Positions 42,989-63,631 of a stretch of 64,000 nt of DNA are shown one piece after another. How positions within the stretch are numbered: the first letter of the stretch is position 1; each line of letters opens with the position of its first letter. The notes below the pieces were generated by a model. It was not told the DNA's origin. It saw only the letters and a program-made list of their open reading frames with translations, and did no database searches. This DNA is from a bacterium (lineage in GTDB: Bacteria > SAR324 > NAC60-12): the NCBI GenBank assembly GCA_965209155.1, contig OZ242383.1:4103403-4167402 (forward strand), given 5' to 3'. Position numbers and translations under genes: made by a program.

Positions 42989-43011
42989 AGGTCGTGTCTC
43001 TTTGATCCAAG

Positions 43012-43580
43012 ATTAATTAATCTCATTAAACCACCAGCTCTGCTGGTGCGAACCTAATAGGCTTTGCCGGTCAGACATGAGAAACGTATCCGTGTCCGTT
43101 AGCCGTGCTCGTGCTCGTGAACGGTCAGTGAATTCGACGGCACATTTTGGTTAACATAGAAACAATGCGATGAAGTAACTGTTTCCCTTCGTCAAATAAA
43201 GGAGGCTGGATGATCTTCAACACGTTTAAAACATCGAGAATAGCAGCGCATTCCATTGCGGAACCTCGGGCAAATGCATAGAATCGTTGCTTGTCAGGAA
43301 AGGAATTTTTTCCACAGCCTTCTGCGATATTGAGAGGAATCGACCATGAGGCCCTTTTCAGTTGGTCAACTAAGGCTGAGTATCCTTTTGGCAATGTTTC
43401 GATGACTTGGACAGATAACGCTAAAAATTCGATGGAACATTGTTATACATCGATTTTTTCATGATCTAACATGGCAGCCTTTTTCGTTCACGAGCACGAG
43501 CACGTCTTACGATGACGAACACGTTTTGCCCCCATCCTGGGGGCCTCTTCAAGCCACCGGCTCTGCCGGTGGTGATGACT
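43012..43580. mobile_element. 569-bp non-autonomous element with IS200/IS605-type hairpin ends carrying a four-helix-bundle gene (copy 1)
   Basis: Reverse-complement match to 63048-63616 with 10 substitutions by manual comparison. Subterminal hairpins CACCAGC-TCT-GCTGGTG (43032-43048) and CCACCGGC-TCT-GCCGGTGG (43554-43572). Confidence 0.8.
43125..43472 (-). pseudogene. Four-helix-bundle protein with a premature stop at codon 10
   Basis: MLDHEKIDV* (TAA at 43445-43443, TAC in copy 2); the rest is near-identical to 63156-63503. Confidence 0.85.
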
Positions 43581-43680
43581 CAAATTCGTAACACCGGGAT
43601 GGGGAAGCGTAACGAGAGAACTGATTTCAGTCCATCACGGATTGTTAGAATCCAAACCTTATTTTAGAAAAAGGAAAAAC

Positions 43681-44463
43681 ATGATCGATTGTAGCGGGAA
43701 AAAAGGAGTGGTCCTGGGTGTTGGCAATTCAAAAAGTATTGCGTGGTCCATTTCCAAATATTTACACCTGTGTGGCGCAGAACTGGCACTCACATACCTC
43801 GAAGATCCCAAGGGGCGATTCGAAAAAAATGTTCGCACATTGGCAGATCAAGTCGGAGCCTCGATCATAAGCCCCTGTGATGTCCAACAAGAAAATGAAA
43901 TTGCATCATTAATGGACACTATATCCCAAAAGTGGGGAAGCGTCGATTTTCTGGTTCACAGCCTGGCCTATGCTGCGCAGCAAGATCTCGGGAGTTCGTT
44001 TGCCGAAACCAGCCGGGAAGGATTTCTCAAAGCCCAGGAAGTGAGTGCTTATTCTCTGATACCATTGAGTGCGGGGGTAGCGCCATTGATGCGGGTCAAA
44101 GGGGGAGGCAGTATTATTACAATGACCTATATCGGTGCAATGCTTGCAGTACCGAGCTATAACGTCATGGGACCTGCAAAAGCGGCATTGGAGTCCTCCG
44201 TACGATACCTCGCCCGGGAATTGGGTCCGGACAATATTCGCATCAATGCAATTTCTGCAGGACCTATTCGTACACTTTCTGCACTAGGTATCAAAAATTT
44301 TTCAACACTTCTTCAAGGCGTAGCAGACCATTCGGCGCTTCGGCGTAATGTTACACCGGACGAAGTGGCTCAAACCGCAGCCTTCCTGTGCAGCGACTTT
44401 TCCTCGGGTATTACCGGACAAACAATTTACGTTGATTGCGGTTACAACATCATGGGAAATTGA
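43681..44463 (+). CDS. fabI: Enoyl-ACP reductase
   Basis: SIAW, YNVMGPAKAALES, NAISAGPIRTL. Confidence 0.95.
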   Translation: MIDCSGKKGVVLGVGNSKSIAWSISKYLHLCGAELALTYLEDPKGRFEKNVRTLADQVGASIISPCDVQQENEIASLMDTISQKWGSVDFLVHSLAYAAQQDLGSSFAETSREGFLKAQEVSAYSLIPLSAGVAPLMRVKGGGSIITMTYIGAMLAVPSYNVMGPAKAALESSVRYLARELGPDNIRINAISAGPIRTLSALGIKNFSTLLQGVADHSALRRNVTPDEVAQTAAFLCSDFSSGITGQTIYVDCGYNIMGN

Positions 44464-44502
44464 GAGGGAGAATCTAAATGATTTATCGCGAATAGAAGCA
44501 AT

Positions 44503-44913
44503 ATGGATTTTGATATGAGCGGCTACGCAGAAGGAAAAACATACGATTTCCTGAAAGAAGACACTATCGACGCGCAAGTATTGCGCACTTTTCCTTACCA
44601 GGGGCCACAACAACGCGTATCCTATAAATTTAAGGAGTTTTCAGCGGTTTGTCCCTTTTCGGGATTACCTGATTACGGAATCGTGTGGGTTAAATACACA
44701 CCTCGGGATCTCGTCGTGGAACTGAAATCTTTGAAATACTATTTTCAAACCTTTCGCCAGGTAGGAATTTATCAAGAAAATGCGACTTCTCGTATTTATA
44801 ATGATTTACATCGATTGCTTCAACCACAACAACTGGTCGTCAAATCTCGATACAATACTCGCGGAGGAATCGACGCGACTTGTGTGGTTCATTCCGAGGA
44901 TCAAAGCGTCTGA
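44503..44913 (+). CDS. queF: preQ0 reductase
   Basis: EFSAVCPFSGLPDYG, ELKSLKYY, RGGI. Confidence 0.95.
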   Translation: MDFDMSGYAEGKTYDFLKEDTIDAQVLRTFPYQGPQQRVSYKFKEFSAVCPFSGLPDYGIVWVKYTPRDLVVELKSLKYYFQTFRQVGIYQENATSRIYNDLHRLLQPQQLVVKSRYNTRGGIDATCVVHSEDQSV

Positions 44914-44925
44914 CACGAGATGTAA

Positions 44926-45165
44926 ATGAGACTGAGTAAAAAACAAAAAGCCATCGTTAAAATCGTCCAGGATCAGGAAACGCTGGAGAGAAGGGTTCTG
45001 TTTGAGGCGTTAGAAGGAGTTTTAGCAGAATATTCTCTTGTAAAAGTCGAAAGAGTGGTAAAATCTTTGCAAGTAATATCTCAAAAACAAGCGATTTCAG
45101 GTCAATTGTTAAATTGTATCAGACCGTTAACCCGACCCACTTTTAGCATAGGAGGTCAGGCATGA
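44926..45165 (+). CDS. Small hypothetical protein
   Basis: ORF fills the gap between queF and the DUF899 gene; no motif recognised. Confidence 0.4.
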   Translation: MRLSKKQKAIVKIVQDQETLERRVLFEALEGVLAEYSLVKVERVVKSLQVISQKQAISGQLLNCIRPLTRPTFSIGGQA

Positions 45166-45180
45166 ATAAAGGAGACGAAA

Positions 45181-45783
45181 ATGTCAAATGAAAAGATTAT
45201 CGAGCTTGAACAAAAGATCGGGGAACTGTTAGCGGAACTGAATGCCCTGCGTAAAAAAAACATGGGAACGCCAGTACCGAATTATACCTTCTCGACTCTG
45301 ACTGGTGAGACAACACTACGCGATTTGTTCGGCCAAAAAAATAAATTACTTGCCATTCACAATATGGGTCAAGCCTGTCGCTACTGTACCTTGTGGGCAG
45401 ACGGTTTTAACGGATTGTTAATGCACCTGGAGTCGGTGATTTCAGTCGTTTTGTTATCGAAGGATTCACCTGAGATTCAGCATCGCTTCGCAAGCTCCCG
45501 AGGTTGGCGATTTCAGCTCGCCTCTCATGGTGGTGGTGACTATATTCGCGAGCAGTCGGTTTATGAAGCTTCCGATAATTTCCCAGGCGCCATCATTTAT
45601 CAGCGCGACGGTGATAGAATTCTTCGTAAAAATTCTTGCGTTTTCGGTCCCGGGGATATTTACTGCGCTCAGTGGAGTCTGCTCGGCCTTGCCGGATTGG
45701 GTGAAGGAGACTGGACACCACAATATTCTTATTGGCAACGTCCGACTAAAATGGAAGACGGTGGTGCCAACCTCCTCGACTGA
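45181..45783 (+). CDS. DUF899 thioredoxin-like protein
   Basis: CRYCTLWADG, SRGWRF, FGPGD; strong RBS AAGGAG. Confidence 0.8.
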   Translation: MSNEKIIELEQKIGELLAELNALRKKNMGTPVPNYTFSTLTGETTLRDLFGQKNKLLAIHNMGQACRYCTLWADGFNGLLMHLESVISVVLLSKDSPEIQHRFASSRGWRFQLASHGGGDYIREQSVYEASDNFPGAIIYQRDGDRILRKNSCVFGPGDIYCAQWSLLGLAGLGEGDWTPQYSYWQRPTKMEDGGANLLD

Positions 45784-45980
45784 CATCTTCCCTGTAAATC
45801 TTTCTGGGATCAAGGTATTCGCCCACCATTATCCCTTTGATGCTTCGTAAAAGTTCATTTTCGAGTACGCACCTTCATTAAGAAGTCATGTCGACCTCCA
45901 ACAATCATAAAGCTCTGCAATGCTTTCGTTACATCTTCGCTGGGCATTAATGAAAGGCCAACAAGCACATCATTCACCCA

Positions 45981-46736
45981 TCACTTCCCTGCGGTTGCTC
46001 CACCGTCAATGACCAAATCGCTGCCGGTGACAAAAGAAGACTCGTCCGAAGCCAGGTAAAGGGCCGCGTAGGCCACGTCTTCCGGCTGGCCCGCGTGGCC
46101 CAGGGGAATACTGTTGAACAGCTCCTTTCGAGATTCCTCCTCCTCCAAAAAGTGGGCGATCATCATTGTTTCGATGTTGGACGGAAGGATGGAGTTGACG
46201 CGGATCCCTTCCCTGGCGTATTGAACAGCGGTGGACTTGGTCAATAGCCGCATCGCAGCCTTGGACGTGTTGTAGGTGCACGACGTCCCCATGTTGCCTT
46301 CCAGCGCAGCCACCGAAGCGATGTTGATCATGGAGCCGCCACCCGCTTTCCGCATCTCGGGTATAGCGTGTTTTGTCCCCAGAAACGCGCCCTTGGCATT
46401 TGTATCCAAATCCCGATCCCACTGCTCGCTGGTGATCTCCTCCACCCGAGCGAATCGGCAAGTCCCCGCATTGTTCACCAGCACGTTCAGTTTCCCGAAG
46501 CGGGCGACCGTGGAGGCCACGGCTTGCTGCCACTCGGCCTCGCTGGTAACATCCAACCGGACGAAGAGGCACTCGCCACCGGTTTCATTAATTTCGGTCT
46601 CGGTCTGACGCCCTTCCTCTTCCAGCACGTCTCCAATGACCACTTTGGCCCCTTCCCCGGCAAACAGCGTGGCCATCGCTGCGCCCAGACCCCTGGCTCC
46701 CCCGCTGATAAAAGCGACCTTGTCTTTCAGTCTCAT
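45981..46736 (-). CDS. Short-chain dehydrogenase/reductase
   Basis: SGGARGLG, NNAG, YNTSK. Confidence 0.95.
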   Translation of the reverse strand: MRLKDKVAFISGGARGLGAAMATLFAGEGAKVVIGDVLEEEGRQTETEINETGGECLFVRLDVTSEAEWQQAVASTVARFGKLNVLVNNAGTCRFARVEEITSEQWDRDLDTNAKGAFLGTKHAIPEMRKAGGGSMINIASVAALEGNMGTSCTYNTSKAAMRLLTKSTAVQYAREGIRVNSILPSNIETMMIAHFLEEEESRKELFNSIPLGHAGQPEDVAYAALYLASDESSFVTGSDLVIDGGATAGK

Positions 46737-46748
46737 GGTTTCCTTCTT

Positions 46749-47456
46749 TTATTGATGATCGATGGTAGTTTGTCTCCCCGCTAACCACTGGATCCCCCGT
46801 CCCACTACCGTTCGAAAACCGGGGTTTGAGTAGGCGCGGTTATCGTCCCCGCCCTGGTAGCAGAAGACCCTCGCCTTACCGAAGGTCCGCGTCCACGCGA
46901 TCGTCTTCATACTCTGGGGATGATCGGTGGTGAGCAGGATGTGGCTATCCTCGTCCGCATCGTCTGCGTGATAGGTCTCGTCGACGATGTCCCACGGCTC
47001 CAGTGTGGCAGTGATGGGATGCCCGGTGTCCGCGACGTCGATGCGCATGGTCTGCTCCAAGGCATACGGTACTGTGCCCCCCTTATGACGCATGCCGCTC
47101 AGCTCTCTCCAGAGCGGCCAGTCGGGGAAGGCTACCAGCGCGTGATGCAGCAGAAATATCCCCTGGTCCCCATCACGGCGAATCCCCTCCAGTATCTCCT
47201 TCAGGCCTCCTCCGCTCTGCTTAGAGGTTCCTGGCTCTGATTTACCATCTTTTTCAGGGGGCGTGCTTTGGTGCCAGTTGAAGAACACGAGTACGTCATA
47301 GGTCCCTGGACCGCGTGCCGGGTCGGTAATGAAGTCCCACATGTTCTGAGGGTAGACATCGATTTCGGGAAGGGAGCGAAGCATGGACTGGAAGCCGACC
47401 ACGTCATATTCGTGCTCGCCGGTAATCACGGCTGTTTTTATCTTTCCATTCGTCAT
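46749..47456 (-). CDS. ThuA-like domain protein
   Basis: Start MTNGKIK after RBS AGGAG; HPIT, DETY, IAWTRTFGKARVF, RGIQW. Confidence 0.8.
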   Translation of the reverse strand: MTNGKIKTAVITGEHEYDVVGFQSMLRSLPEIDVYPQNMWDFITDPARGPGTYDVLVFFNWHQSTPPEKDGKSEPGTSKQSGGGLKEILEGIRRDGDQGIFLLHHALVAFPDWPLWRELSGMRHKGGTVPYALEQTMRIDVADTGHPITATLEPWDIVDETYHADDADEDSHILLTTDHPQSMKTIAWTRTFGKARVFCYQGGDDNRAYSNPGFRTVVGRGIQWLAGRQTTIDHQ

Positions 47457-47500
47457 GTTTCTGTCTCCTGCATTAGAATAATTAATGATTACAATGATAT

Positions 47501-47623
47501 GCCATCCCGGTCCCGGATCAAGTCCGGGATGATCCGGGATCCAGGTACCTGGTAGCGTTGCATACCCGTTCCACGTCGGCCGCTTCCGCGTACGGCTGGA
47601 TTCCTGGTCAAGCCAGGAATGAC
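47501..47623. repeat. Palindromic REP/RPE-like intergenic element
   Basis: Hairpins TCCCGGA-TCAAG-TCCGGGA and TTCCTGG-TCAAG-CCAGGAA joined by an ATCCAG...CTGGAT stem. Confidence 0.7.
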
Positions 47624-47675
47624 AAAGTTGCGAATACCCAAGGAGAAAAAAAGTACGCACTTTTGCCCTTCGGCA

Positions 47676-48704
47676 CTAGTTGGGCAGCAAGGCCACGGAA
47701 CGGACCTCGCCAAACTCCTTTTGCAGCTTTTGCCACGAATCACCCCCGTCTTCGCTCAGGTACACGTAACCGTAGAAGCTGGCCGCGACGATTACGTGGG
47801 GCCGCTCCTTGTGAGTGGCCATCCCATAGATATGCGAGTTGGGCTTTACCGGCAGGGACACCGGTTGCCAACTTTTCCCGGCATCCTGGGTGCGCTGCAC
47901 GGCACCGGTGACACCGGGAATCGTGTCGCCGTTGCCGACAAACATGACATCGGGGTTATCCGCTTTGATGACCATGCCGCGGCAGTAGGACGCACGAGCT
48001 CCTTCATGGAACTTGGGGAAATTGTGGTAATCCCAGCTTTCGCCTTCGTCGTGGCTGGTGGCGATCCCAAAGGGCGAGGTACAGTAGATTGTGGAACGGG
48101 CGCCTGTCTTCAGAGTCAAACTGTGAATGTCGCCATGGAAGGGGTCAGGCCCCAGGTCGGGTAGGTGTGTCCAGGTGTCGCCGCCATCCAGGCTCTTGTA
48201 AACCCCGTCAACTTCCATGCCGGCCCAGATGGTGTCGTTGTTCCTGGGATCTACCATCATGCAGGTGGTCCGCGGCGGTGAGTCAGGAAGTGCGGGAGAC
48301 AGGGGGGTCTTCATGTTTACGCCCATCTGAAGCTTGCTCCAAGTCCGCCCCCCATCCCGGGAGCGGAATCCCTCGGGTCGCGTGCCCACGAAGAGGGTGT
48401 CCGGGTCCGTAGGATCGACAGTGACCGACCAGATTTCAAGGCCCGCTGTGGGAGCATCCAGGTTTTCCCAGGTCGTGCCGCCATCGTCGCTGCGGAAAAC
48501 GCCCACCTGGGATGAGGGTAATAATTGATGACCATCAACCCCGGCCAATACCCGCCGGGGGTTGGATGGATCCACGCACAACGCCCTGACGTTGGACTCA
48601 TGCCAGATAGGCTGATAGATGGGGGTCCAGGATTCACCGCCATCGGCACTCACGTTCAGCCCTTGGCCGACAGTGCCGATGAGGATTGTATAATTTTTTG
48701 CCAT
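47676..48704 (-). CDS. BNR/Asp-box repeat beta-propeller protein (glycosyl-hydrolase-like)
   Basis: About seven SxDGGxTW-type repeats. Confidence 0.88.
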   Translation of the reverse strand: MAKNYTILIGTVGQGLNVSADGGESWTPIYQPIWHESNVRALCVDPSNPRRVLAGVDGHQLLPSSQVGVFRSDDGGTTWENLDAPTAGLEIWSVTVDPTDPDTLFVGTRPEGFRSRDGGRTWSKLQMGVNMKTPLSPALPDSPPRTTCMMVDPRNNDTIWAGMEVDGVYKSLDGGDTWTHLPDLGPDPFHGDIHSLTLKTGARSTIYCTSPFGIATSHDEGESWDYHNFPKFHEGARASYCRGMVIKADNPDVMFVGNGDTIPGVTGAVQRTQDAGKSWQPVSLPVKPNSHIYGMATHKERPHVIVAASFYGYVYLSEDGGDSWQKLQKEFGEVRSVALLPN

Positions 48705-48712
48705 GTTGCGTT

Positions 48713-48922
48713 TCCTTTCCAAAAATCATGAAGCTCTCTTTTGTTGAGACCCGCCATAGCGCCCTGCAGCACCCCGCAACCGGGGGTCGAGCAAATCCCT
48801 GAGGGCGTCGCTGAAAATATTGAGGCCGTAGACGGTGATCACCGGAATGAGGGCGTTGGGAAGCGCATGCCGGAGTCGGGGAATGAGATCGCTCCATTCC
48901 CCGATGGGCTCATTACTGTCCC
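48713..48922 (-). pseudogene. Collapsed remnant of an ABC permease pair
   Basis: Mosaic matching 60163-60284 (DppC-like 3' end), 61389-61433 (DppB-like internal) and 62184-62229 (intergenic). Confidence 0.85.
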
Positions 48923-50766: not shown

Positions 50767-50975
50767 AAGATTCTCCTTAAAAAAATAAATGACAAAATGA
50801 CGCTCTCACGCGCCCATCAGCTGTTGCAAAACGGGTTTTATTCCATAGGCATTTCCTCCTTATCATCGGTTTTTCAGTAATAAAAAAGCTCTATAATCAG
50901 GAAGAACCCCCCTAATCACTGAAAGCTAAGAGCTAACAGTCAAAACTTCATTGCCCCCTGCCGTGAGTCTTTAGC

Positions 50976-50991
50976 TTCAAAAGTCATGCCA
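50976..50991 (-). promoter_or_regulatory. Candidate sigma54 (-24/-12) promoter for the substrate-binding-protein operon
   Basis: Minus strand TGGCATGACTTTTGAA vs consensus TGGCACG-N4-TTGCW; the -12 GC is GA here. Confidence 0.55.
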
Positions 50992-51075
50992 CTCGCTCGA
51001 AACGCAGGATTGGTGGGGGCTGAGGCAACTTGTGAGAAAGGAGGCTGCCAGTTTTGAGGTGATTTTTTGGTAAAA

Positions 51076-51196
51076 TCGGGCATTTTTGCCCTTCTTAAAC
51101 ACAAAAAATGGTGGATATTCGGCAGTAATGCATTGATATTAAACACTAATCCGAGATTCGGGCAGAAATGCCCGATCACTGGGCAGAAATGCCCGA
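51076..51196. promoter_or_regulatory. Three palindromic GGGCA-N4-TGCCC boxes (candidate enhancer sites)
   Basis: 51076-51091, 51158-51175, 51180-51196; a fourth box at 51801-51816. Confidence 0.65.
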
Positions 51197-51429
51197 TTTG
51201 ATTTTATTTGATGAATTTACGTCCTTTGGGCAGGGATCCGAATGCGGCCCAGCCTAAAATGAAGAAGGCTTTCACCTCAGATATGAGTTCTACCATGGGG
51301 AGGTTTACGCCTACCCATCCTCATGATTGCAGGAAAGAGGGAACAGTGATAAATTGAGGGAGAATGAAGCCACGCTTTTGAGAAAACAGATGAAACTACC
51401 TTATGGGATCAGCAATTTTGCCCGTTTGA

Positions 51430-51687
51430 ATGATACTTACAACAGATCCAATTGAGGAAAGAACAATGACATTAACGATAGAGTTACCCGACACATTGAC
51501 TCAACAATTTCGTGAACGACAGATTCCTGAAAAAGAAATAGAAGCCGTAGTCTTAGCGACTTTAGAAATCTGGCTGGCTCAACAGAAATCAGAAACGGGT
51601 GACCGTTTCACTGAAAGTGCTGTGCCTTTCATCCGGCGGCTAATTGCACAAAATCGCGAACTTTTTGAAAGATTGGCGCAACGATAA
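51430..51687 (+). CDS. Small antitoxin-like protein (start probably 51466)
   Basis: MTLTIELPD ribbon-like start after RBS GAGG; C-terminus NRELFERLAQR. Confidence 0.5.
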   Translation: MILTTDPIEERTMTLTIELPDTLTQQFRERQIPEKEIEAVVLATLEIWLAQQKSETGDRFTESAVPFIRRLIAQNRELFERLAQR

Positions 51688-51823
51688 TCATGGCTGAGAT
51701 TCAAAAACCGTGAACCGTGCTATTCATCGTAAGCAAGGGCTTCTGCAAGATAATCCTCTGCTGAGAAAAGAGTATCAGGGAATGACCAATGCCTCCTGAC
51801 TGGGCATAAATGCCCTATTCGAT

Positions 51824-54800: not shown

Positions 54801-57793
54801 GGATCCTCTCGGACGTTGTCTTTTACGGCACCGGCCAGCTTCTCCATCAACTCGAAGCGGCCGCAGAGCCATGACATCTCCGTGGCTTCCTCATGCAGAG
54901 ATAAGGCCAGGGGGTAATGCCGTTTCCAGGCGGCGGCTCCTGAAAGCTCCAGGCCCACGGTAAAATATTCCAGGGCCTGTTCAAAAGCCGCAGCCGCCCT
55001 GGCCTTAAGACCGGCCTTCAGGTTGAGTTCCGCCAGGTGCGATCGTTCTTTCCATTTATCCTTCACCCTCCGGGCCAGGTTGAGATGATGGACGATGTCA
55101 AAAAGCAGATCTTCACCTTTCTCCGGAGCGTATTGCTTGAGCAGAGCCTGACCGATTTGAAGATGGACCGGCTGTTTCTCCTTTTGGGCAATGAGGGCAT
55201 AGGCAGCCTGCTGCACCCGGTCATGCAGGAATTTGTAGCTGCGGCTCTCCGCGCTCGCTCCGGAGATAGGATTATCCGGCTGCGGAGCTCGGAAAAAACC
55301 GAGGATCAACCCGGTTTCCAGAGCCGGCAACAGGTTCTCATAGAGTTCCCCGCTTCCGGCTCCACTGATCAGTCCTAACGATTCCAGGTCAAAGGTATTG
55401 CCGATGCAGGCCGCCAAGCTTAAGAGTTTCCTGGTTTCAGAGGGGAACCGGTGGAGCCGGTCAACCAGCAACTCCACCACATTCTCGGTCACCGCCAGGA
55501 ATTCGATGGCAGCCAGGTTCCAAATCCACTGTTTTTCCTCAGGGGAGAAGCGGATCAGGTTCTTTTCGGAGAGTAGGGTCAAAAACTGCCCCACAAAGAA
55601 GGGATTGCCTCCGGTTTTGCGCACCAGCAGTTCGGCCAGCGGTTTGGCCTCCTCAAGACGGCAGTGGCAGGTATGGACGAGCAGTAGTGAGATGTCATCC
55701 GGGTTGAGGGGCTTTAAGGGGATTATTTGCACAGGCAGGCCAGTTTTTTTGATCACCTCACGACTGATCATCAGCCGGTGATCGGCCTCCACCTCGTTGT
55801 CGCGATAGGCCCCCAGGAAAAGCAGAGGTTTCCTCTCCGGATCCTGAGCGATCCGTTCCACCAGCTTGAGGGTATCGGCGTCCACCCACTGCAAGTCATC
55901 CAGAAAAATAACCAGCGGATGGGTTTTTTCACAGAAAAGGTCGATGAACTCCAGTAAAACGGTAGTGAAGCGGTTGCGGGACTCCAGCGCTGCCATTTCC
56001 GGCAGCGGGGGTTGTGGGCCGATCATTTGTTCCAGTTCCGGGATCACCCGGGTCACCAGTTGTCCGTTGGGTCCCAGGGCAGCTCGTATCCTGCTTTTCC
56101 AACGCTCCATTCCGGATTTGTTTGCGACCGATATCTCCCGGATGAGTCCCCGCAGCGCCTCGATCAAGGCGCTGTAAGGGATATTGTGCCGGAGCTGGTC
56201 AAACTTGCCGGAGATGAGATAACCGCTTTTTTGGGCAACAGACCGGTGAATTTCACCGACCAGGGCGGTTTTGCCGACACCAGCAGTTCCCGAGACCAGC
56301 ACTATCTCGGTCCCTCCCTGGCTGACTCGCTGCAGGGCGCCTTCCAGGGCGATGATTTCATCCTCCCGGCCGTAAAGCCCCGGGGCGATCTGCAATTCTT
56401 TAGGAATGTCCAAGCGAGCCAGGGGAAAGTCGGACAGGCTCTCCTGGTTTTCCAGTTGCTCCAGACAAATCAGGAGATCGGCTGCCAGACCCGAGTGACT
56501 CTGGTAGCGCGCCTCGGCACGCTTGGCCAGCAGTTTCATCACCATATTAGAAAGAGTTTTAGGCACCCGCGGAGCCACCTGGTCCAGGGGTACGGGCTGC
56601 CGGGCAATGTGAGCGTGGATGATTTCCATGGCCTCCTGGGACCCAAAAGGCACTTTCCCGCTGAAAAGTTCATAAAGGGTAGCGCCCAGGGAATAAAAAT
56701 CACTGCGATAATCGAGGGGGCGGTTCATCCGGCCGGTCTGCTCGGGGGAGATATAGGGCAGGGTTTCCCCGCTTAGCCGGGGACTCAACGTCGTCAAATT
56801 TTCCTTAGGCAACCGGGTGGCCAGGCCGAAGCCGCTCAGTTTGACCGTCCCCGATGCCGGATCGACAAAAATATTGAACGGGTTGATCATTTTATGCAGG
56901 ATGCCCTGCCGGTGCACTTCTTTCAGGATGCCGATCAGTGAAACCGCTACCTTCAGCGAGTCCGGCAGGTCGAGCCGCGTGGTATCCATCAACTTTCTTA
57001 AAGGGAAACCTTCCGTGTTTTCCAGGATCAAGACCGATCCGTTTTTACATTGCACCAGTTCCTCTGACCTGAGGACCCCATCAATCTCCAGAGCCTGGGT
57101 GATCTCATGCTCATGCCGCATTTCCGCCAGCTCCTGGGCGCTCTGCTCAGAGGAAACCGCTCCCTTGATCAGGACCAAAAGCCCATCGCTTTGCCGCCTG
57201 CCACGCCAGAGCCGGGTCCGCCCACTTTCAAAAACGACCTCCTCCAGCGAGTAACCCGGAATCTCCGGATTTTTTCTGTCTGGAATCGTCCGCTCTTTTA
57301 GTGGATACCACTCTTTTGTTAGCCTGGATTGCGTTTCCATTCCCGGGCCAGTGGAGACTTCTTCCTTTGTCCCTTCAGGCATTTTGAAGCTTTTCAGCAG
57401 ATCCTCAAGGAAACCCTGGTCCTTTTCGATTTCGTGGATTTTTCCCAACATTCTCCGGGCAGCATGGTAATTTAATCCGATTTTTTCTGATAATTGTTGA
57501 GCCGTCGTCTCCCCGTTGCATACGGCCACATAGTAAATCCCCCAAAACCAGTAACGCAGCGGAGTTCGCGTCCGGTGCATCAGAGTGCCCGCTATGATCG
57601 AAGTCTGGTGTTTACAGTTTCTGCATTGCAGTAATTGACGTTTTTTCAGGGTATCGTATCGGTCACTACCGCAGACTGAGCACACAAAACCGGCTGGCCA
57701 ACGGAGATGGAAGAGGTGATTGCGACAGACTTCATCGTTCGAAAAATGCTTTTGGATCTCATGAATGGAATGAGCTTGAATTGTTTCATCCAC
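51824..57793 (-). CDS. Giant sigma54-dependent activator: IS1595-type Zn-ribbon/HTH, kinase-like, AAA, helical, GAF, sigma54 AAA+ and Fis-HTH domains
   Basis: LRWPAGFVCSVCG...QCRNCKHQTS; YISPEQTGR; GTAGVGKT and LDDLQW; GAF (SILCAPI..GIIYLEN); GESGTGKE, GAFTGA, FLDE, WPGNVREL; KTLYRKI. Confidence 0.9.
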   Translation of the reverse strand: MDETIQAHSIHEIQKHFSNDEVCRNHLFHLRWPAGFVCSVCGSDRYDTLKKRQLLQCRNCKHQTSIIAGTLMHRTRTPLRYWFWGIYYVAVCNGETTAQQLSEKIGLNYHAARRMLGKIHEIEKDQGFLEDLLKSFKMPEGTKEEVSTGPGMETQSRLTKEWYPLKERTIPDRKNPEIPGYSLEEVVFESGRTRLWRGRRQSDGLLVLIKGAVSSEQSAQELAEMRHEHEITQALEIDGVLRSEELVQCKNGSVLILENTEGFPLRKLMDTTRLDLPDSLKVAVSLIGILKEVHRQGILHKMINPFNIFVDPASGTVKLSGFGLATRLPKENLTTLSPRLSGETLPYISPEQTGRMNRPLDYRSDFYSLGATLYELFSGKVPFGSQEAMEIIHAHIARQPVPLDQVAPRVPKTLSNMVMKLLAKRAEARYQSHSGLAADLLICLEQLENQESLSDFPLARLDIPKELQIAPGLYGREDEIIALEGALQRVSQGGTEIVLVSGTAGVGKTALVGEIHRSVAQKSGYLISGKFDQLRHNIPYSALIEALRGLIREISVANKSGMERWKSRIRAALGPNGQLVTRVIPELEQMIGPQPPLPEMAALESRNRFTTVLLEFIDLFCEKTHPLVIFLDDLQWVDADTLKLVERIAQDPERKPLLFLGAYRDNEVEADHRLMISREVIKKTGLPVQIIPLKPLNPDDISLLLVHTCHCRLEEAKPLAELLVRKTGGNPFFVGQFLTLLSEKNLIRFSPEEKQWIWNLAAIEFLAVTENVVELLVDRLHRFPSETRKLLSLAACIGNTFDLESLGLISGAGSGELYENLLPALETGLILGFFRAPQPDNPISGASAESRSYKFLHDRVQQAAYALIAQKEKQPVHLQIGQALLKQYAPEKGEDLLFDIVHHLNLARRVKDKWKERSHLAELNLKAGLKARAAAAFEQALEYFTVGLELSGAAAWKRHYPLALSLHEEATEMSWLCGRFELMEKLAGAVKDNVREDPDLANVYQCLIKAYTNQGELKKAMETGEEILEKLGYQLSRLSLDQWQQTLVQIKPGLAGKSVADVMRFEPLTQQDAEVLVPILYELHVAYGEAGVTLDNGLWQPIASKRISFLLNNFHPKHSPESYGLLATIYCEFMQDFEFGYELGSLGIQLMEALDLKEINCRVSEGFNGGTRSYREPLSASLEPLLEAHKMGIETGDFFNAGRSAVVRCQIAFMCGKELNWLKGELSTLKLALKKIDYILGSPQVEMLTKAIMILMEEPSSLSSGIMDHYHRVMGAEFVYHEQISFNYQKLVLLYLFEEYEAARETVFEMIKLMKTYKDALMDPLVNCYLSLALLAVYSQGSEGEKEEILTQVHGHQETLEKLARCAPSNYLHKYHLVEAERLRVLEGEPDAIMHHYDQAIALARESEFIHEEALANELAARYLLNQGRSDAAWAYLRSAMEKYEAWGAKRKVAHLKSRYPGLIVDDRAEAASPSANLDLATILKASEAISSTLELEPLLEILLGILIENAGAQTAALILETEAQSLIAARGSAEQVEYFLPLSLPVEKVGSLSLSVISWVKQTQEHLVLDNAAREERFAIDDYIRRERPKSILCAPITLQSALTGIIYLENNMVEGAFTSRRLEVVKHLSSQIAISLENTRLHENLKKAMDELKASETSLREENVRLKANIKERYRFGKIIGKSPVMQKIYELILKAAASDAGVIVYGESGTGKELVAEAIHEMSDRKEKPFVAVNAGGVAETLLESEFFGYKKGAFTGANTDKLGLLHLADKGTLFLDELGEIGPNLQAKLLRAVEGRGFTPVGGLKAEISDFRVIAATNKDLKEQIKKGLMREDFFYRIHIIPIHLPPLRERKEDIPLLIEHFMQNYPSSKNLPTITVAVMEALTSYDWPGNVRELINTMHRYLTLKKLDFLDSSLVDASQTELPVSVEARETNESLDATMKRFEKLYLTRVLDDNDWQQSKVSALLEVNPKTLYRKIKQYHLKPS

Positions 57794-57844
57794 TTGGTGC
57801 TCCCATATCTAAGGCGATTTAATGAAAACATTAGATTTTAAATT

Positions 57845-58222
57845 GATGATTAAATGAAAACATTAGATTTTAATTTTCAGGTTGGAATAACCTTTCAGAT
57901 TATTTAACGCAAGAAAATTATGCGTCTTCCATCACAGAAACTTCATCACTCCTACGAAGTGGTCCGCTAAGATGATTAAATGAAAACATTAGATTTTAAA
58001 TTTTAGATTGGTATAACCTTTCAGATTATTTAACGCAAGAAAATTATGCGTCTTCCATCACAGAAACCTCATCGCTCCTACGAAGTGGTCCGCTAAGATG
58101 ATTAAATGAAAACATTAGATTTTAAATTTTAGATTGGTATAACCTTTCAGATTATTTAACGCAAGAAAATTATGCGTCTTCCATCACAGAAACTTCACCG
58201 CTCCTACGAAGTAGTCCGCTAA
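57845..58222. repeat. Tandem repeat, 3 x 126 bp, plus a degenerate partial unit at about 57809-57844
   Basis: GATGATTAAATGAAAACATTAGATTTT recurs at 57845, 57971 and 58097; units differ at only a few positions. Confidence 0.95.
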
Positions 58223-58455
58223 GATGAGAGATGATAGGCTGCTGCGGTAATTATATCTTTGGGGAATCGATGTCTTTTGAGACTGATCATGACCTTGACT
58301 CATCTCCGTACCCTCATAGCGAGGCGCATATGTCGAATTGTATTGCCAAAGTTTATACCTCTCCGGAGATTCAAGAGAAATTGCTGTCCTCCGCACAATG
58401 TGTTATTCTTTTGAAAAGACGACAAATTTCACCATTCATTCCTCTAGAGGACATC

Positions 58456-58953
58456 ATGACTGCTTTAGAATCCGTCAAAAATCACTCCTCTCCAAGACGG
58501 GTGCCTCCTCCTGCCAAGGAGTTGCTCAGGGTGAGTGAAGCCGAGTATTGGAAGACGTATTATGAACACCCGGATGGTTCATATGAATGGAACAATGGCC
58601 TCTTGGAGGAAAAGCCTATGCCAGATTTTTTAAGCATCTCCCTCTATGAATGGTTCTTCCACTTATTAAAAGAGTATTTGACCGTCTTTCCCATCGGACG
58701 GATGATGGTATTGGAAATGGGCTTTCGTTTGGCGGTGGGAAAGCAAAAGGTGAGTATTCGCAAACCGGATCTGGCCGTGATTCTCCACTCCAATCCTGTC
58801 GAGGCCAAACCGTTGGATCGTTCGTTTCATGGAGTGTGTGACCTCTGTATCGAGTTTTTATCCGACTCGACTCCCGCGGAGGAAGAAAAAGCGCTTGCGG
58901 AAGTCGAACGGCTGCGTGCTCTCCTCCAAGAGAAAGATTTTGATCCCCGCTAA
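58456..58953 (+). pseudogene. Uma2/DUF820-family nuclease, apparently internally deleted
   Basis: YEWNNGLLEEKPM, RKPDLAV, DLCIEFLSDS; then jumps to a coiled tail without the K..EY..GV.EY segment. Confidence 0.7.
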
Positions 58954-59005
58954 AATTCTATGCCCCTCACAAAGGTCTTTTTCGATCCTTATCTCTATGG
59001 CCATT

Positions 59006-60091
59006 CTACGGATTTCCTCCGGAAGGAAGGACATCGGCCAATTGGTCACGGACCCCGTAAGGGTCGAAGAGGGCTTCTACCTGAGCCCAGGTGGTGGGAT
59101 CCACCGGGATGCCTTGGGCCAATCGCTCTTGGCGCGTCTTGGCGGATCTTTCCCCCGGAAAGACAACCCCGCCCGATCCTTCCATCGGGGGGGTATCTTG
59201 AAGGTATTTCATCATCTGTTGAACCTCGGCCCGGATGGTTTCCAGGGGCGCCATACGGCCCAGGTCGATGGCGAGTATCGTGGATCCTTCACACATTTCC
59301 GCCATATAAGTTTTTCCATGAGGAACAGCGATCTGGCCAAGAAGCCCCCCGAAAAGCGCGATCATGACCGAGAGCGCATATCCCTTGTAGCCGCCTTGCA
59401 GGCCACCGAGGGGAAATTGGGCACCCCCCTCATAGAAATCGTTCGGGTTCCGACTGGGAACTCCATGCTTATCAATGATCCAAGTATCCGGCAGCTCCTG
59501 TTCCTGGTTACGGTAGACCCGTATCTTCCCCTCAGAGGTGATCGAGGTAGAAATATCAAGCAGGACCGGGGCGCCTTCAGCATGAGGGAAGGCCATCGCT
59601 AAAGGGTTTGAGCCGAGCCGGCCTTCGCGTCCGCCAAAGGGAACCAGGGGGGCCCACGGTTTTCCCGCCCAGCCCGTGAACATGATGGCAGCCAAACCGG
59701 CCGCTGCTGCCATTTCGGGGTAGGTTCCGATGCGACCCGTATGAGTCAGGTTTCCCATACTCACCAGGCTGACTCCATGGTCACGAGCCTTCTCGATCGC
59801 CATTTCGGTCGCACGTGTGGCAACCACCTGTCCGAAGGTAGAATGGCCATCGATCTGGAGGATCGCCCCATGGTCGCCAACGACTTCCGGCTCTGCCTTT
59901 GGATCGACCACGCCTTCCTCAATTTCTTTCAGGTACTGGGGTAGGCGAATGAACCCATGGGAATCGTATCCCGCAAGATTGGCCTGGACCAGGTGCTCCG
60001 CCACGATACCAGTGTGACTGGCCGGAGCACCTCCTGCCTGCAACATCACATCGGTTATCCGGACAACCTGAAGTTTCGTCAATATTGGCAT
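59006..60091 (-). CDS. Ldh2-family (type 2 malate/L-lactate) oxidoreductase
   Basis: GYDSHG, THTGRIG, GSNPLA, GYKGYAL, FPGE. Confidence 0.92.
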   Translation of the reverse strand: MPILTKLQVVRITDVMLQAGGAPASHTGIVAEHLVQANLAGYDSHGFIRLPQYLKEIEEGVVDPKAEPEVVGDHGAILQIDGHSTFGQVVATRATEMAIEKARDHGVSLVSMGNLTHTGRIGTYPEMAAAAGLAAIMFTGWAGKPWAPLVPFGGREGRLGSNPLAMAFPHAEGAPVLLDISTSITSEGKIRVYRNQEQELPDTWIIDKHGVPSRNPNDFYEGGAQFPLGGLQGGYKGYALSVMIALFGGLLGQIAVPHGKTYMAEMCEGSTILAIDLGRMAPLETIRAEVQQMMKYLQDTPPMEGSGGVVFPGERSAKTRQERLAQGIPVDPTTWAQVEALFDPYGVRDQLADVLPSGGNP

Positions 60092-60175
60092 AGATTGCTC
60101 CTGAGAATTCAGTTTGTTATCGGGCTCTCACGCGAAGCATGGGAAACCATTTATCAAAGCTCTCCTTTCCAAAAA

Positions 60176-61111
60176 TCATGAAGCTCTCTTTTGGCGAGAT
60201 CCGCCATAGCGCCCTGCCGCCCCCCGCAACCGGGGGTCGAGCAAATCCCTGAGGGCGTCGCCGAAAATGTTGAGGCCGTAGACGACAATCATCAAAGCAA
60301 GACCAGGCCAGATGGACATCAAAGGAGATAGGAACATATAAGAGCGTCCGGAGCCACTGAGCATTCCTCCCCAGGTAGGATCGGGCGGGGGGATGCCCAA
60401 ACCCAGGAAGCTGAGGCCGGCTTCCCCTAAAATCATACCCGGCACAGTTGCCGAAAACAGGATGATGATGGTCGGCATAATATTGGGCAGGATATGTCGG
60501 GTTATGATTTTCGTAGTCGGACTGCCAATCGCCGCCGCCGCTTCTACATACATATTCTCTCGAATGGCGATCACGGCGCTTCTCATGATCCTGGAAACGC
60601 CGATCCCTTGTACCAACCCCATCGCGATAATCAGCTGCCACATCCCTGGCCCCACGATAGAGACCGCAAATAAGAAAATGATGAACGGCGGAAAGCAAAT
60701 CCACCCATCCACAAAACGCTGCACCACGATATCGAACTTACCTCCGAAAAACCCGGAAGGGACCCCGATCAATAAGGCAACCAGGATCGCCAGAGCAGAC
60801 GCCCCTAAACCGACAATCATAGAGATACGAGCCCCAAAGACAATACGGCTATAAATATCCCGCCCAAGGTTGTCCGCCCCGAGGAAATACTTAAATGAGG
60901 GGGGATGCAGGTAATCTCTCGGGTGAATGTCGTTCACTCCATAAGGCGCCAGCCAATCGGCAAAAATACCAGTAAAAAGAAAGAGCAGCACGATCATCCC
61001 GCCAATAAGACCCAGGGGTTGCTCCTTGACCAGCCTGGTCAAGAACACCACCGACCTGGCACGTCGTTTGGGCTCACTGATATTGGATGGGATTTCCAGG
61101 GTATTATTCAA
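60176..61111 (-). CDS. ABC peptide-type permease (DppC/OppC-like)
   Basis: LGADNLGRD, YVEAA..IG, EAGLSFLGLG, GDALRDLLDPR. Confidence 0.95.
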   Translation of the reverse strand: MNNTLEIPSNISEPKRRARSVVFLTRLVKEQPLGLIGGMIVLLFLFTGIFADWLAPYGVNDIHPRDYLHPPSFKYFLGADNLGRDIYSRIVFGARISMIVGLGASALAILVALLIGVPSGFFGGKFDIVVQRFVDGWICFPPFIIFLFAVSIVGPGMWQLIIAMGLVQGIGVSRIMRSAVIAIRENMYVEAAAAIGSPTTKIITRHILPNIMPTIIILFSATVPGMILGEAGLSFLGLGIPPPDPTWGGMLSGSGRSYMFLSPLMSIWPGLALMIVVYGLNIFGDALRDLLDPRLRGAAGRYGGSRQKRAS

Positions 61112-61172
61112 GATCGCTCCTTTTATCGTAACGGTTATCGGTAAACTGACAACCGTTAACCGATAACTTTTA

Positions 61173-62150
61173 TCAATACCGAATCCTGGGGTCCAGAAGG
61201 GCGTAGGTCAAGTCAACCACCAGGTTGGCCAGCATGATAATGATAGCGGCAAATATCGTTATTCCGGAGATTAAGGGATAGTCTCTATCATTAATGGCCT
61301 GTACCAATAAATGACCCAGGCCGGGCAAGCCGAATATCCTCTCGATGATAATGGTCCCCCCAATCACCCACGGTAACATAAATCCGATGACGGTGATCAC
61401 CGGAATGAGGGCGTTGGGAAGCGCATGCCGGAGGATGACCACCTTCTCCTTGAGTCCCTTGGACCAACCTGTCCTGATGTAATCATTCCTGAGGATCTCC
61501 AGCATCATGGTTCGTGTCATCCTCATGACTAACCCCGACATCAGCATGCCCAAAACCAGAGAGGGCACGATGAACTGCCCCAGGTTTTTAAGCGGGTCCT
61601 TCGTGAAACTGGTATACTCTATCGGCGGAGACCACCCCCACCAAAGCGAGGGGAAGACGATGACCAGCGTCCCCAGCCAGAAGTCGGGCATCGCGATAGC
61701 GAACATAGAAAAGCTGCGCGCGGTGTAGTCGCCAATGGTGTTTTGCCGTATTGCGGAATAGATCCCGATAGGGAGGGCTATCAGGATGGCTATTGTCAAA
61801 GTCAGGAGAGCAAGCTCAAAGGTTAAGGGTAATCGCTTGAGGACTATCCCAGTCACCGGGAGCTGGCTCCATAGGGATAATCCAAGGCTGCCTTGAAACA
61901 GTCCGGAAAAAGAGCCATGTTGGTCCCGAATCACTCCTATCCAGCGTCCGTATTGGACAGGGATCGGCGCATCCAGTCCCAGGCGTTTTCTGACTTCCTC
62001 TTTGGTCATTTCTGACATGTTTCCCAGCCCAGATGCCATCTGGGACACGACATCGCCGGGAATTAAGCGAATGGCAAAGAACACGATGAGACTCATTACG
62101 AAGATAGTGGGTATAATCAGGAGGACTCTCCTGATGATGTAGGCTTGCAT
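61173..62150 (-). CDS. ABC peptide-type permease (DppB/OppB-like)
   Basis: YIIRR, LGLD.P, DYIRTG..KGL, RHALPNA, LDPRIRY. Confidence 0.95.
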   Translation of the reverse strand: MQAYIIRRVLLIIPTIFVMSLIVFFAIRLIPGDVVSQMASGLGNMSEMTKEEVRKRLGLDAPIPVQYGRWIGVIRDQHGSFSGLFQGSLGLSLWSQLPVTGIVLKRLPLTFELALLTLTIAILIALPIGIYSAIRQNTIGDYTARSFSMFAIAMPDFWLGTLVIVFPSLWWGWSPPIEYTSFTKDPLKNLGQFIVPSLVLGMLMSGLVMRMTRTMMLEILRNDYIRTGWSKGLKEKVVILRHALPNALIPVITVIGFMLPWVIGGTIIIERIFGLPGLGHLLVQAINDRDYPLISGITIFAAIIIMLANLVVDLTYALLDPRIRY

Positions 62151-62254
62151 TTTGTATCCCCTTGTCTCTCTACCCTATCTTAATCGGGGAATGAGATCGC
62201 TCCATTCCCGAAGGGCCCATTACTGTCCCGTAACTATTCAGGTCTCTGAAAAAC

Positions 62255-62626
62255 CCGTTCAGTTGAATATCATTAAAAAGATTCCCGGAGAGGAGCGATC
62301 GTTTTCAAGTCCCCCCACGATATAGTTCAATCGATCGGAAACCCTCTTCATTCATAAAAACAACTTAACGAAATCGTGACTATAGCACAATAAAATGTTA
62401 TGTAAACCCCTGATGTAAAATAAATTCGGGATTCGCAATAAAATTTAAAAAACAATAAATCTGCTCAAATGCGGGGACAGTCAGAAGCCGTTCAGTTCAA
62501 TATCGGTGAAAAAAGATTCCCGAAGAGGATCCATCACTTCACTTCACTTCCTTCCGCAGCTATTTTGAATCGAACGGGCGGGAACCCTCCCAAGATTGTG
62601 TTCAATCGATCGGGAACCCTCTTTCA
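62255..62626. repeat. Degenerate direct repeat pair in intergenic DNA
   Basis: CCGTTCAGTT.AATATC...AAAAAGATTCCCG.AGAGGA...TTCAATCGATCGG.AACCCTCTT at about 62255-62350 and 62488-62626. Confidence 0.7.
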
Positions 62627-63047
62627 CTAAAATAACTTTGAAAAGGCATATATGTCGCATTATTTTACGCAAAATCAAGCCCCCATAGCAAAAAAATGCA
62701 GGATTCATAAAAAAGTAGAAATTTTTGTCAAAATTCATCGACATCACAGAAAAGTTCTAATAACTGACTCATGCTATTTCCTTGGATATGAGTGTCGTTG
62801 TATTTCTTTTTTCTCATCTTATTTTCCAGGAGTTAGTGCAAAATCTTCATCTCGAACTCAGGTTAAATAAACGGTATCCATCGATTCAGAGGTGATGGAG
62901 AACCAGTGCAAAACCAGGGGATCCCCGTGAGCATCACTCTGCATTGCGTCACTTGCTTCTCATGGTTTAAATTGCTAAATTGTTGCAAGGTCAAGCTGGC
63001 GATGCAAAAGGTGTGTACTCGAATTCTATCTCACTTTTCTATTTGAA

Positions 63048-63616
63048 AGTCATCACCACCGGCAGAGCCGGTGGCTTGAAGAGGCCCCCAGTATGAGGGC
63101 AAAACGTGTTCGTCATCGTAAGACGTGCTCGTGCTCGTGAACGAAAAAGGCTGCCATGTTAGATCATGAAAAACTCGAGGTATACCAATGTTCCATCGAA
63201 TTTTTAGCGTTATCTGTCCAAGTCATCGAAACATTGCCAAAAGGATACTCAGCCTTAGTTGACCAACTGAAAAGGGCATCATGGTCGATTCCTCTCAATA
63301 TCGCAGAAGGCTGTGGAATAAATTCCTTTCCTGACAAGCAACGATTCTATGCATTTGACCGAGGTTCCGCAATGGAATGCGCTGCTATTCTCGATGTTTT
63401 AAACGTGTTGAAGATCATCCAGCCTCCTTTATTTGACGAAGGGAAACAGTTACTTCATCGCATTGTTTCAATGTTAACCAAAATGTGCCGTCGAATTCAC
63501 TGACCGTTCACGAGCACGAGCACGGCTCACGGACACGGATACGTTTCTCATGTCTGACCGGCAAAGCCTATTAGGTTCGCACCAGCAGAGCTGGTGGTTT
63601 AATGAGATTAATTAAT
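63048..63616. mobile_element. 569-bp hairpin-ended four-helix-bundle element (copy 2)
   Basis: Inverted copy of 43012-43580 in unrelated flanking sequence. Confidence 0.8.
63156..63503 (+). CDS. Four-helix-bundle protein (23S rRNA-IVS protein / Avd-like family)
   Basis: HEKLEVYQ, DQLKRASWSIPLNIAEG, RGSAMEC, IVSML. Confidence 0.9.
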   Translation: MLDHEKLEVYQCSIEFLALSVQVIETLPKGYSALVDQLKRASWSIPLNIAEGCGINSFPDKQRFYAFDRGSAMECAAILDVLNVLKIIQPPLFDEGKQLLHRIVSMLTKMCRRIH

Positions 63617-63631
63617 TTTCGAGAATGTCCC

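Follow-up and report, generated by a model that had tools for sequence, protein, structure and literature searches.

A highly amplified IS200-group element without transposase that carries a four-helix-bundle protein gene in a SAR324 genome

Closest described systems

Insertion sequences of the IS200/IS605 family usually carry genes for TnpA, TnpB or IscB. According to the cited sections of PMC7290912, these elements have no inverted repeats, insert 3' of a tetra- or pentanucleotide without duplication, and have at each end a hairpin that is bound by TnpA; their excision and insertion proceed on single strands with a bias for the lagging-strand template, and derivatives that consist of the ends only (PATEs) are moved in trans. 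The single-strand transposition is termed "peel-and-paste" in an excerpt of PMC10055086, and non-autonomous elements with iscB as their only gene (ISC) are described in an excerpt of PMC4810608. Here, we describe a 562-bp element that occurs twice in a window of 64,000 nt (positions 4,103,403 to 4,167,402 of the forward strand of contig OZ242383.1, assembly GCA_965209155.1) from a SAR324 bacterium of the NAC60-12 lineage, and whose only open reading frame (ORF) encodes a 115-aa four-helix-bundle protein of the PF05635 family. It is a real, highly amplified, non-autonomous element of the IS200 group with a new type of cargo. Very probably it is a derivative of an IS200/IS605 element in which tnpA was replaced by a PF05635 cassette and which is presumably moved in trans. 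In the simplest reading, the replaced stretch starts directly behind the left-end region and stops just short of the first right-end hairpin.

Comparison of the element with the IS200 group and its derivatives revealed that (i) like IS200, it has no terminal inverted repeats, causes no duplication, lies 3' of a fixed pentanucleotide, and bears a subterminal hairpin at each end; (ii) its length compares with the 560–625 bp of the IS200 types resident in the same genome, and ~50 nt of each end align to tnpA-bearing elements; (iii) in contrast to IS200, it has no tnpA and carries a PF05635 gene that is encoded on the opposite strand and enclosed by a long inverted repeat; and (iv) like PATEs, tnpB-only elements (IS1341-type), and iscB-only elements, it has no transposase, has family-type ends, is present in many copies, and is presumably moved in trans. 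However, PATEs are short and non-coding, whereas the ORF of the element has a ratio of non-synonymous to synonymous substitution rates (dN/dS) of 0.10 between species. The cargoes of the tnpB-only and iscB-only elements are RNA-guided nucleases, whereas the cargo of the present element is a small helical protein that has no nuclease domain and is under selection.

Two other systems are related to the element through its protein. Avd, according to the cited part of bioRxiv 10.1101/2023.10.23.563531, is a barrel of five subunits that has a positive charge and acts on structured RNA. The modeled fold of the element's protein is a homologous four-helix bundle, but no reverse transcriptase, template or variable repeats lie beside its gene. 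The intervening sequences (IVSs) of 23S rRNA with an S23p ORF (Coxiella, Leptospira) encode a protein of the same family, and their ORF likewise lies in the loop of a long inverted-repeat stem with short tandem repeats adjoining. In the cited sections of PMC4990558, the Coxiella IVS is described as having heptamer repeats before the S23p ORF, the origin of IVSs is called unclear, and 2 hypotheses are cited: a remnant of transposition (Burgin 1990) and a mobile element with an ORF that serves its mobility (Ralph and McClelland 1993). By contrast, no copy of the element lies in rRNA, and hairpin-type transposon ends are not reported in the IVS literature examined.

The initial annotation, which was made from the letters of the window alone, did not recognize this architecture as a described one. 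In agreement, no description of IS200/IS605 ends combined with a four-helix-bundle cargo, or of repeat arrays around PF05635 members outside rRNA, was found in the full-text literature searched, a coverage outside which ISfinder, subscription journals, and supplements lie. An IS200 form that lacks transposase and spreads a helical protein of the Avd/IVS type, which selection maintains, is an added cargo class. It is also the first concrete vehicle found for a family with members in 23S rRNA, in retroelements, and between the genes of operons, and for which the IVS literature, in the cited part of PMC4990558, calls origin and mobility unclear.

Copies, target site and ends of the element

The genome that holds the window (G000) is a single contig of 4,258,857 bp; it was compared with that of a sister species of the same genus (G001, 91% complete). 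A repeat search of the window revealed 2 inverted arms of 575 nt (43006–43580 and 63048–63622) that are 98% complementary. The initial annotation had described 2 copies of 569 bp. The copies were confirmed, but the alignment of 85 copies and the empty sites set the limits of the unit at 562 bp, and the TAATT beside its left end is host target sequence outside the element (Table 1). "Present twice" proved true of the window only. A blastn search of G000 with the unit plus 100-nt flanks returned 125 high-scoring segment pairs, 111 of them at least 100 nt long, and these 111 comprise 85 copies of at least 540 nt and 26 shorter matches; that is to say, the genome has ~100 copies, not two. Identity among the copies is 96–100%, with a mean divergence of 1.1% from the majority consensus. 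The copies are mostly intergenic, and the orientation of their ORF shows no bias relative to the upstream neighbor (37 co-directional, 48 opposed) or the downstream neighbor (45 and 40, respectively). PF05635 has 98 matches in G000, 3 of which lie outside the element, the remainder being at coordinates of copies or fragments (by comparison of the lists, not row by row); 40 relatives have 0 to 5 matches per genome.

The copy number is reflected in read depth. In Logan contigs of 2 DNA runs from different studies, the summed depth of the element was ~260 as against 3–4 for the flanks (run X1) and ~1000 as against 10–14 (run X5), ~60–80 times the flank depth, and both runs have contigs running from the psd flank into the element. 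Therefore, the multi-copy state is not an assembly artifact, a possibility that the initial annotation had raised. Seven pairs of copies in G000 adjoin or overlap: 2 are arranged head to tail with the right end joined directly to the left end, 3 are joined via T+TAATT, and 2 have recombined within the hairpins. The dimers at 142751–143879, 2610902–2612030, 2588863–2589952, and 2612320–2613409 comprise two direct right/left-end joins and two junctions inside the related end hairpins, ~44 nt short. Another T+TAATT junction lies at 26777, where the partner copy is rearranged.

The target consensus at the left of the copies is TAATT, its 5 positions being conserved in 79–81 of the 85 copies (T79 A79 A81 T81 T80). 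The right flank has a weak T at +1 (46/85), and the flanks are otherwise unrelated. Empty sites were searched for by building, for each copy, the left flank, TAATT, and the right flank into one sequence that was matched to G000. Junction-spanning matches were obtained for 34 copies, several of them self-matches of tandem copies. In all 6 clear paralogues displayed, TAATT is joined straight to the right flank without duplication, 1 of the 6 having TCATT for TAATT and a gap of 1 nt within a run of T. Orthologous sites agree with this in both directions: the psd-fabI spacer of G001 is 168 bp long and has no element, the G001 sequence preceding gltA can be aligned through the insertion point and lacks the element, and, conversely, a G001 copy (L048) occupies a site at which G000 has an uninterrupted spacer of 180 bp. 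Another G001 copy shares its spacer with a G000 copy, in the opposite orientation, and therefore represents an independent insertion. Because the empty sites are precise, the 562-bp element inserts 3' of TAATT without duplicating any sequence. An A+T-rich repeat family of ~50 copies with 2 TAATT sites each (for example, G000 2419474–2419561 and the flanks of the copies at 148258, 156644, and 1955609) is a repeated target of the element (5 copies) and, once, of a resident IS200 type (type A).

Sequence and empty sites alike bear out the statement that transposase, terminal inverted repeats, and target duplication are absent. Both end hairpins have the same orientation on one strand, the sole inverted repeat is internal, no transposase gene accompanies the PF05635 ORF, and profile searches of the unit's protein returned no recombinase, nuclease or reverse transcriptase. 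The subterminal hairpins are as initially described in both copies, and each folds alone as DNA (left end, z −2.2, 4/200 shuffles as good; right end, z −3.8, 0/200). The earlier account of the structure overlooked an internal inverted repeat of 42 nt, 83% complementary, which encloses the ORF in each copy. When the element is read from left to right, the ORF lies on the complementary strand. Folded as RNA, the whole unit pairs its initial ~100 nt with its final ~100 nt, leaving the ORF in the loop (−186.6 kcal/mol, z −5.2, 0/100 shuffles as good).

These ends have counterparts in tnpA-bearing elements. G000 has 20 Y1_Tnp matches, at least 10 of which score above the cut-off; the 10 strong ones (119–144 bits) represent 3 IS200 types of ~600, 625, and 562 bp. 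The left ends of these resident types consist of an A+T-rich flank of the TTAAT/TAATT kind, 12–20 nt, and a hairpin with a G+C-rich stem and a 3–5-nt loop, and their right ends of a hairpin followed by 7–9 nt, both on the same plan as in the element. In a side-by-side reading of the sequences, type A abuts the same TAATT of the A+T-rich repeat family to within 1 nt. Type C, which has 5 identical copies, has a right-end hairpin with the TCT loop and the apex of the element's left-end hairpin. Beyond the copies, the hairpin search of G000 returned 1 stray at 3,385,369, beside an IS5-type gene.

Closer counterparts were found in metagenomes. The 19-nt hairpin of the right end, searched for in metagenome contigs with 2 degenerate positions allowed, occurs in at least 120 stretches. 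Among the 80 hairpin loci fetched, a Y1 tnpA lies within 1.2 kb in 17 and a four-helix-bundle gene in none; an element-like right-end context (first G+C hairpin, short spacer, hairpin) is present in 11, 5 of which carry tnpA. Locus L174 is a whole IS200 of ~600 bp with the hairpin at both ends, each of which aligns over ~50 nt to the element. Its tnpA region matches plasmid genes annotated as "IS200/IS605 family transposase", and a tnpA copy on a Desulfosarcina ovata plasmid has the same two-hairpin right end as the element. Locus L170 shows TAATT, 12 nt, and the hairpin in the layout of the element. Altogether, tnpA-carrying IS200 elements in metagenomes share with the element ~55 nt at each end, the exact 19-nt hairpin included; a tnpA element with such ends, which the initial annotation had proposed to look for, thus exists there but is absent from G000. 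Another IS200 of this set, from a gut metagenome (L167), had no match in a megablast search of E. coli genomes.

In IS608, the target pairs with a short run of bases 5' of the left hairpin. In 3 ends (the element, type A, and L170), all of which abut TAATT, the sequence just 5' of the hairpin is TTAAA, which fits such target pairing, in three cases only. The content of G001 is 4 copies, 2 right-end fragments, and 2 weak matches, one of them ~600 bp from a gene like those of REP-associated tyrosine transposases (RAYTs), and no tnpA element with these ends. Y1-domain proteins of ~335 aa with a C-terminal extension, like RAYTs, are present in both genomes (G000 2428344–2428670; G001 C29 722638–745882), with 5 RAYT-like copies within 25 kb in G001.

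The four-helix-bundle protein and its inverted repeat arrays

The 115-aa protein matches PF05635 with 75.7 bits (cut-off 33.8) and TIGR02436 with 69.4 bits (cut-off 24). Its AlphaFold model (predicted local distance difference test 90.8) has four helices and compares with 2GSC and 2RLD at TM scores of 0.87–0.88 and with Avd (4DWL/8UB7) at 0.74–0.77; a phmmer comparison to 2GSC gave 2.8e-9, and sequence identity to Avd is ~10%. The profile scores and TM scores thus agree with the kinship to the 23S-IVS protein and Avd that the initial annotation had named for the sole cargo gene. Its family and fold stand, but of the 2 window copies only copy 2 encodes the full product; copy 1 is broken at codon 10, and its remnant is listed as an ORF of 89 aa with a TTG start. 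Rfam, PADLOC, and PHROGs returned no match for the element or the protein. Our best guess, by analogy with Avd and its binding of structured RNA, is that the protein binds structured nucleic acid of its own cassette.

The ORF has evolved differently within and between species. Relative to the consensus, the 83 G000 copies without ORF deletions have 55 synonymous, 189 non-synonymous, and 11 nonsense changes (dN/dS ~1.0), and the 115-aa ORF is kept in 63 of the 85 copies and lost in 22. Between the G000 consensus and 3 G001 copies, dS is 0.89–0.95 and dN/dS is 0.10–0.11; therefore, the protein is functional over the long term. The ORF is intact in all 4 G001 copies, two of which, having the same flanks, may represent a single locus that was assembled twice. 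Identity between G000 and G001 is 94% at positions 1–111 (left end plus left repeat arm), 81% in the ORF, and 85% in the right-hand 108 nt, and the host genes beside copy 1 are 79–81% identical. On these identities, the left end is constrained beyond the coding level.

The repeat layout around the ORF recurs in other lineages. Within the range of lengths searched, the protein has 1618 relatives (E≤1e-5), many of which lie on contigs of 500–750 bp. The array test used 80 loci from one-genome-per-species contigs, 5 of which were dropped for short or masked flanks, leaving 75. In 41 of these loci, the inverted repeat spanning the ORF scores higher than in any of the 50 shuffles, and an inverted-repeat score of at least 20 was reached in 29 of the 75 as compared with 1 of 68 displaced controls. 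The best flank period is 6 in nearly all cases. The homologues come from many phyla; the array unit varies by lineage, and the layout is constant. The inverted 6-nt arrays are a defined sequence feature across phyla and a candidate binding site of the protein. Copies of one repeat in a Chlamydiae metagenome-assembled genome (MAG) account for 19 of the 34 failing loci. In this MAG, at 20 loci, the four-helix-bundle gene overlaps an IS5-type DDE transposase remnant of 85 aa at the 3' end of the latter (L088:1257–1848), and the repeat has a GGGCAN array after the gene, on one side only. One protein (P0121) combines PF01609 and PF05635 in one chain.

The 3 PF05635 paralogues of G000 outside the element (2689339–2689656, 1977834–1978139, and 2014284–2014493) each lie between inverted tandem arrays of 6–7 nt, and 2 of them directly follow the stop codon of an ABC permease gene in an apparent operon. 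A strict hairpin scan of 60 distant loci found IS200-type hairpin ends on both sides of no homologue beyond the G001 copies. A homologue in a Thermodesulfobacteriota MAG (L058:470–620) is followed by a hairpin and flank like the left end of type A, shorter and seen by eye; this locus is possibly a second IS200-type shell. The flanking stems of 36 homologue loci have no excess of G-U pairs on the ORF-sense strand (51 sense, 47 antisense, p 0.76), which therefore gives no evidence that the stem is selected as a sense RNA; the count in the element's own stem (3 as against 0) is too small to weigh. The single 23S gene of G000 is 2939 nt long for a model of 2925 positions and has no insertion.

Mobilization of the element and features of the window

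Judged from its sequence, the element has every cis-feature of the family for which it was tested. The cassette comprises the PF05635 ORF on the opposite strand inside the 42-nt inverted repeat of 6-nt units. Movement would proceed by single-strand peel-and-paste, the hairpin ends being cut and rejoined by a Y1 HUH TnpA supplied in trans. Candidate mobilizers are the resident type A, which uses the same TAATT; type C, which has the TCT loop and apex; or a lost or extrachromosomal TnpA. The long internal stem may fold the single strand or a transcript and thereby bring the ends together for a TnpA dimer. The reading as a non-autonomous IS200/IS605-type element, already proposed in the initial annotation, is supported by the copies, the empty sites (paralogous in G000, orthologous in both directions with G001), and the shared ends; movement in trans is what we infer from them.

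A lagging-strand orientation bias of the copies is suggested by their distribution. Copy orientation switches near 4.0 Mb, which was seen before dnaA was searched for; dnaA lies at 1.795 Mb, and its antipode at 3.92 Mb. When the origin is taken at dnaA, the top strand is on the presumed lagging-strand template in 62 of the 85 copies (binomial p 2.8e-5; Fisher 1.8e-4) and, after neighbors are collapsed, in 51 of 73.

Several observations weigh against a tnpA-derived element mobilized in trans. GC skew and the strand bias of long ORFs are too noisy to confirm the dnaA-based origin. The hairpin sequences of the resident types A, B, and C differ from those of the element, and neither blastn-short of the 70-nt ends nor a fuzzy hairpin search revealed a tnpA element with the element's hairpins in G000. 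The TnpAs at the metagenomic hairpin loci are only 27–41% identical to the best G000 TnpA. G001 has copies, yet no classical IS200 TnpA was found in this 91% complete genome, its best Y1 match scoring 79.8 bits as against 119–144 in G000. A scan of the element found no promoter-like (sigma-70) site and no terminator. The ORF decays neutrally within the genome; therefore, most copies do not need the protein in cis. Finally, no excision product or circle was seen; among 4 runs, none had a contig of an empty site or an excision joint, although in such assembled contigs an absence carries no weight. An RNA-library contig of 592 nt, that is, 562 nt plus an overlap of 30 nt, follows a circular path through a right-end/left-end junction, which is explicable because 2 genomic head-to-tail dimers exist. 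An RNA-library contig covers the element at a depth of 25.8 and the flanks not at all, which, with ~100 DNA copies, gives no evidence of transcription.

An alternative is an inert passenger, that is, an IS200 that lost tnpA by capturing a neighboring gene and owes its copy number to small size and good ends, as PATEs or miniature inverted-repeat transposable elements do. The within-genome dN/dS of ~1, the 22 copies without the 115-aa ORF, the lack of a promoter-like site, and the lack of an orientation preference relative to neighboring genes are in line with it, as is the statement, in the cited sections of PMC7290912, that short IS200/IS605 derivatives are moved in trans and that shorter elements transpose more. 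However, a dN/dS of 0.10 between species at a dS of ~0.9, with every G001 ORF intact, is unexpected for long-carried junk, and the cassette and its repeat arms are conserved across phyla; we consider the passenger reading unlikely. Another alternative is that the cassette is itself mobile through its own protein, which contributes to amplification, the IS200 ends being one of several vehicles. The layout surrounds homologues in many phyla without IS200 ends and also the 3 G000 paralogues, 2 of them between ABC permease genes; at least 20 Chlamydiae MAG copies are found at the 3' terminus of a DDE transposase remnant, and the PF01609-PF05635 fusion, the purifying selection on the ORF, the heptamers of the Coxiella IVS, and the proposal of Ralph and McClelland (the last two as given in the cited part of PMC4990558) point the same way. 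Nevertheless, all G000 copies end at IS200-type ends and TAATT, and the cassette without those ends is not repeated; between species, the ends are better conserved than the ORF; copies with a broken ORF are, judging by the dN/dS of ~1, as near the consensus as intact ones; and a 115-aa four-helix bundle has no known catalytic activity, in a unit that encodes no recombinase, nuclease or reverse transcriptase. Mobility of the cassette by its own protein is accordingly improbable as an account of these copies.

The resemblance to Avd raises one more mechanism, in which a host reverse transcriptase copies the hairpin RNA with its Avd-like protein, in the manner of diversity-generating retroelements (DGRs). 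PF05635 resembles Avd, which the DGR reverse transcriptase requires (cited parts of PMC10053308 and bioRxiv 10.1101/2023.10.23.563531), the folds match, and G000 has 2 RVT_1 genes. Against this, the RVT_1 genes are single loci at 2.54 and 3.33 Mb, not beside copies; the element has no reverse transcriptase, no template/variable repeat pair, no poly-A-type junction, and no Rfam match; insertion is site-specific at TAATT; and the hairpin ends are homologous to those of tnpA elements. Retro-mobility is therefore extremely improbable, and the reading as an IS200-group derivative with a replaced tnpA is preferred. A broader proposal, which we regard as speculative and doubtful, is that the four-helix-bundle protein and the inverted 6–7-nt arrays form a widespread self-promoting cassette in which the protein binds its own folded nucleic acid. 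In the IS200 shell, it would be a third accessory gene beside TnpB and IscB that raises transposition or retention, and the ORF-bearing 23S IVSs would be landed copies. If true, this would answer the 30-year-old question of the origin of these IVSs.

The features of the 2 window copies are listed in Table 1. Copy 2 ends 22 nt upstream of gltA's start codon, the gap being 17 nt when TAATT is counted (63610–63634), and its four-helix-bundle ORF is co-directional with gltA; because of this short distance, the gltA promoter lies within or beyond the element.

Table 1. Coordinates of the element copies and their parts in the 64-kb window
Feature	Position	Strand	Basis or remark
Target pentanucleotide TAATT of copy 1 (host sequence)	43014..43018	+	Kept in empty paralogous sites
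Copy 1 of the 562-bp element, left to right end	43019..43580	+	85-copy alignment and empty sites; no insertion in the G001 psd-fabI spacer
Left-end subterminal hairpin, copy 1 (7-bp stem with a TCT loop; cleavage point 12-13 nt away)	43032..43048	+	Same hairpin in the left ends of IS200 elements from metagenomes
Left arm of the internal inverted repeat, copy 1 (6-nt periodic units)	43082..43123	+	42 nt, 83%; period-6 flanks in homologues
Four-helix-bundle ORF, copy 1, TAA at codon 10 (base 43443)	43125..43472	-	Other copies have G at 43443
Right arm of the internal inverted repeat, copy 1	43485..43526	+	Repeat search
First right-end hairpin, G+C-rich, copy 1	43528..43544	+	Common to tnpA-bearing relatives
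Second right-end hairpin, copy 1 (8-bp stem, TCT loop), with the 8-nt tail closing the element	43554..43580	+	Exact 19-nt hairpin also in metagenomes (at least 120 stretches)
Copy 2 of the element, left end at 63609	63048..63609	-	Orthologous G001 site empty
Right-end hairpin of copy 2	63056..63074	-	Sequence, folding
Inverted-repeat arm upstream of the ORF, copy 2	63102..63143	+	Repeat search
Intact 115-aa four-helix-bundle gene, copy 2	63156..63503	+	PF05635 / TIGR02436
Inverted-repeat arm downstream of the ORF, copy 2	63505..63546	+	Repeat search
Left-end hairpin of copy 2	63580..63597	-	Sequence, folding
Target TAATT of copy 2 (AATTA on +)	63610..63614	-	Sequence, 85-copy alignment

The window has further repeats. 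A 126-bp unit is present in 3 tandem copies, 95% identical, at 57809–58227, and dispersed direct repeats with lengths of 129 nt (92%) and 50 nt (96%), ~11–12 kb apart, lie at 48713–48875, 60163–60291, and 61384–61433. Window positions 42700–43900 are present in runs (X1–X20) labeled as sponge or marine metagenomes from 10 studies, and the host is evidently a marine sponge-associated bacterium with a genome dense with repeats.

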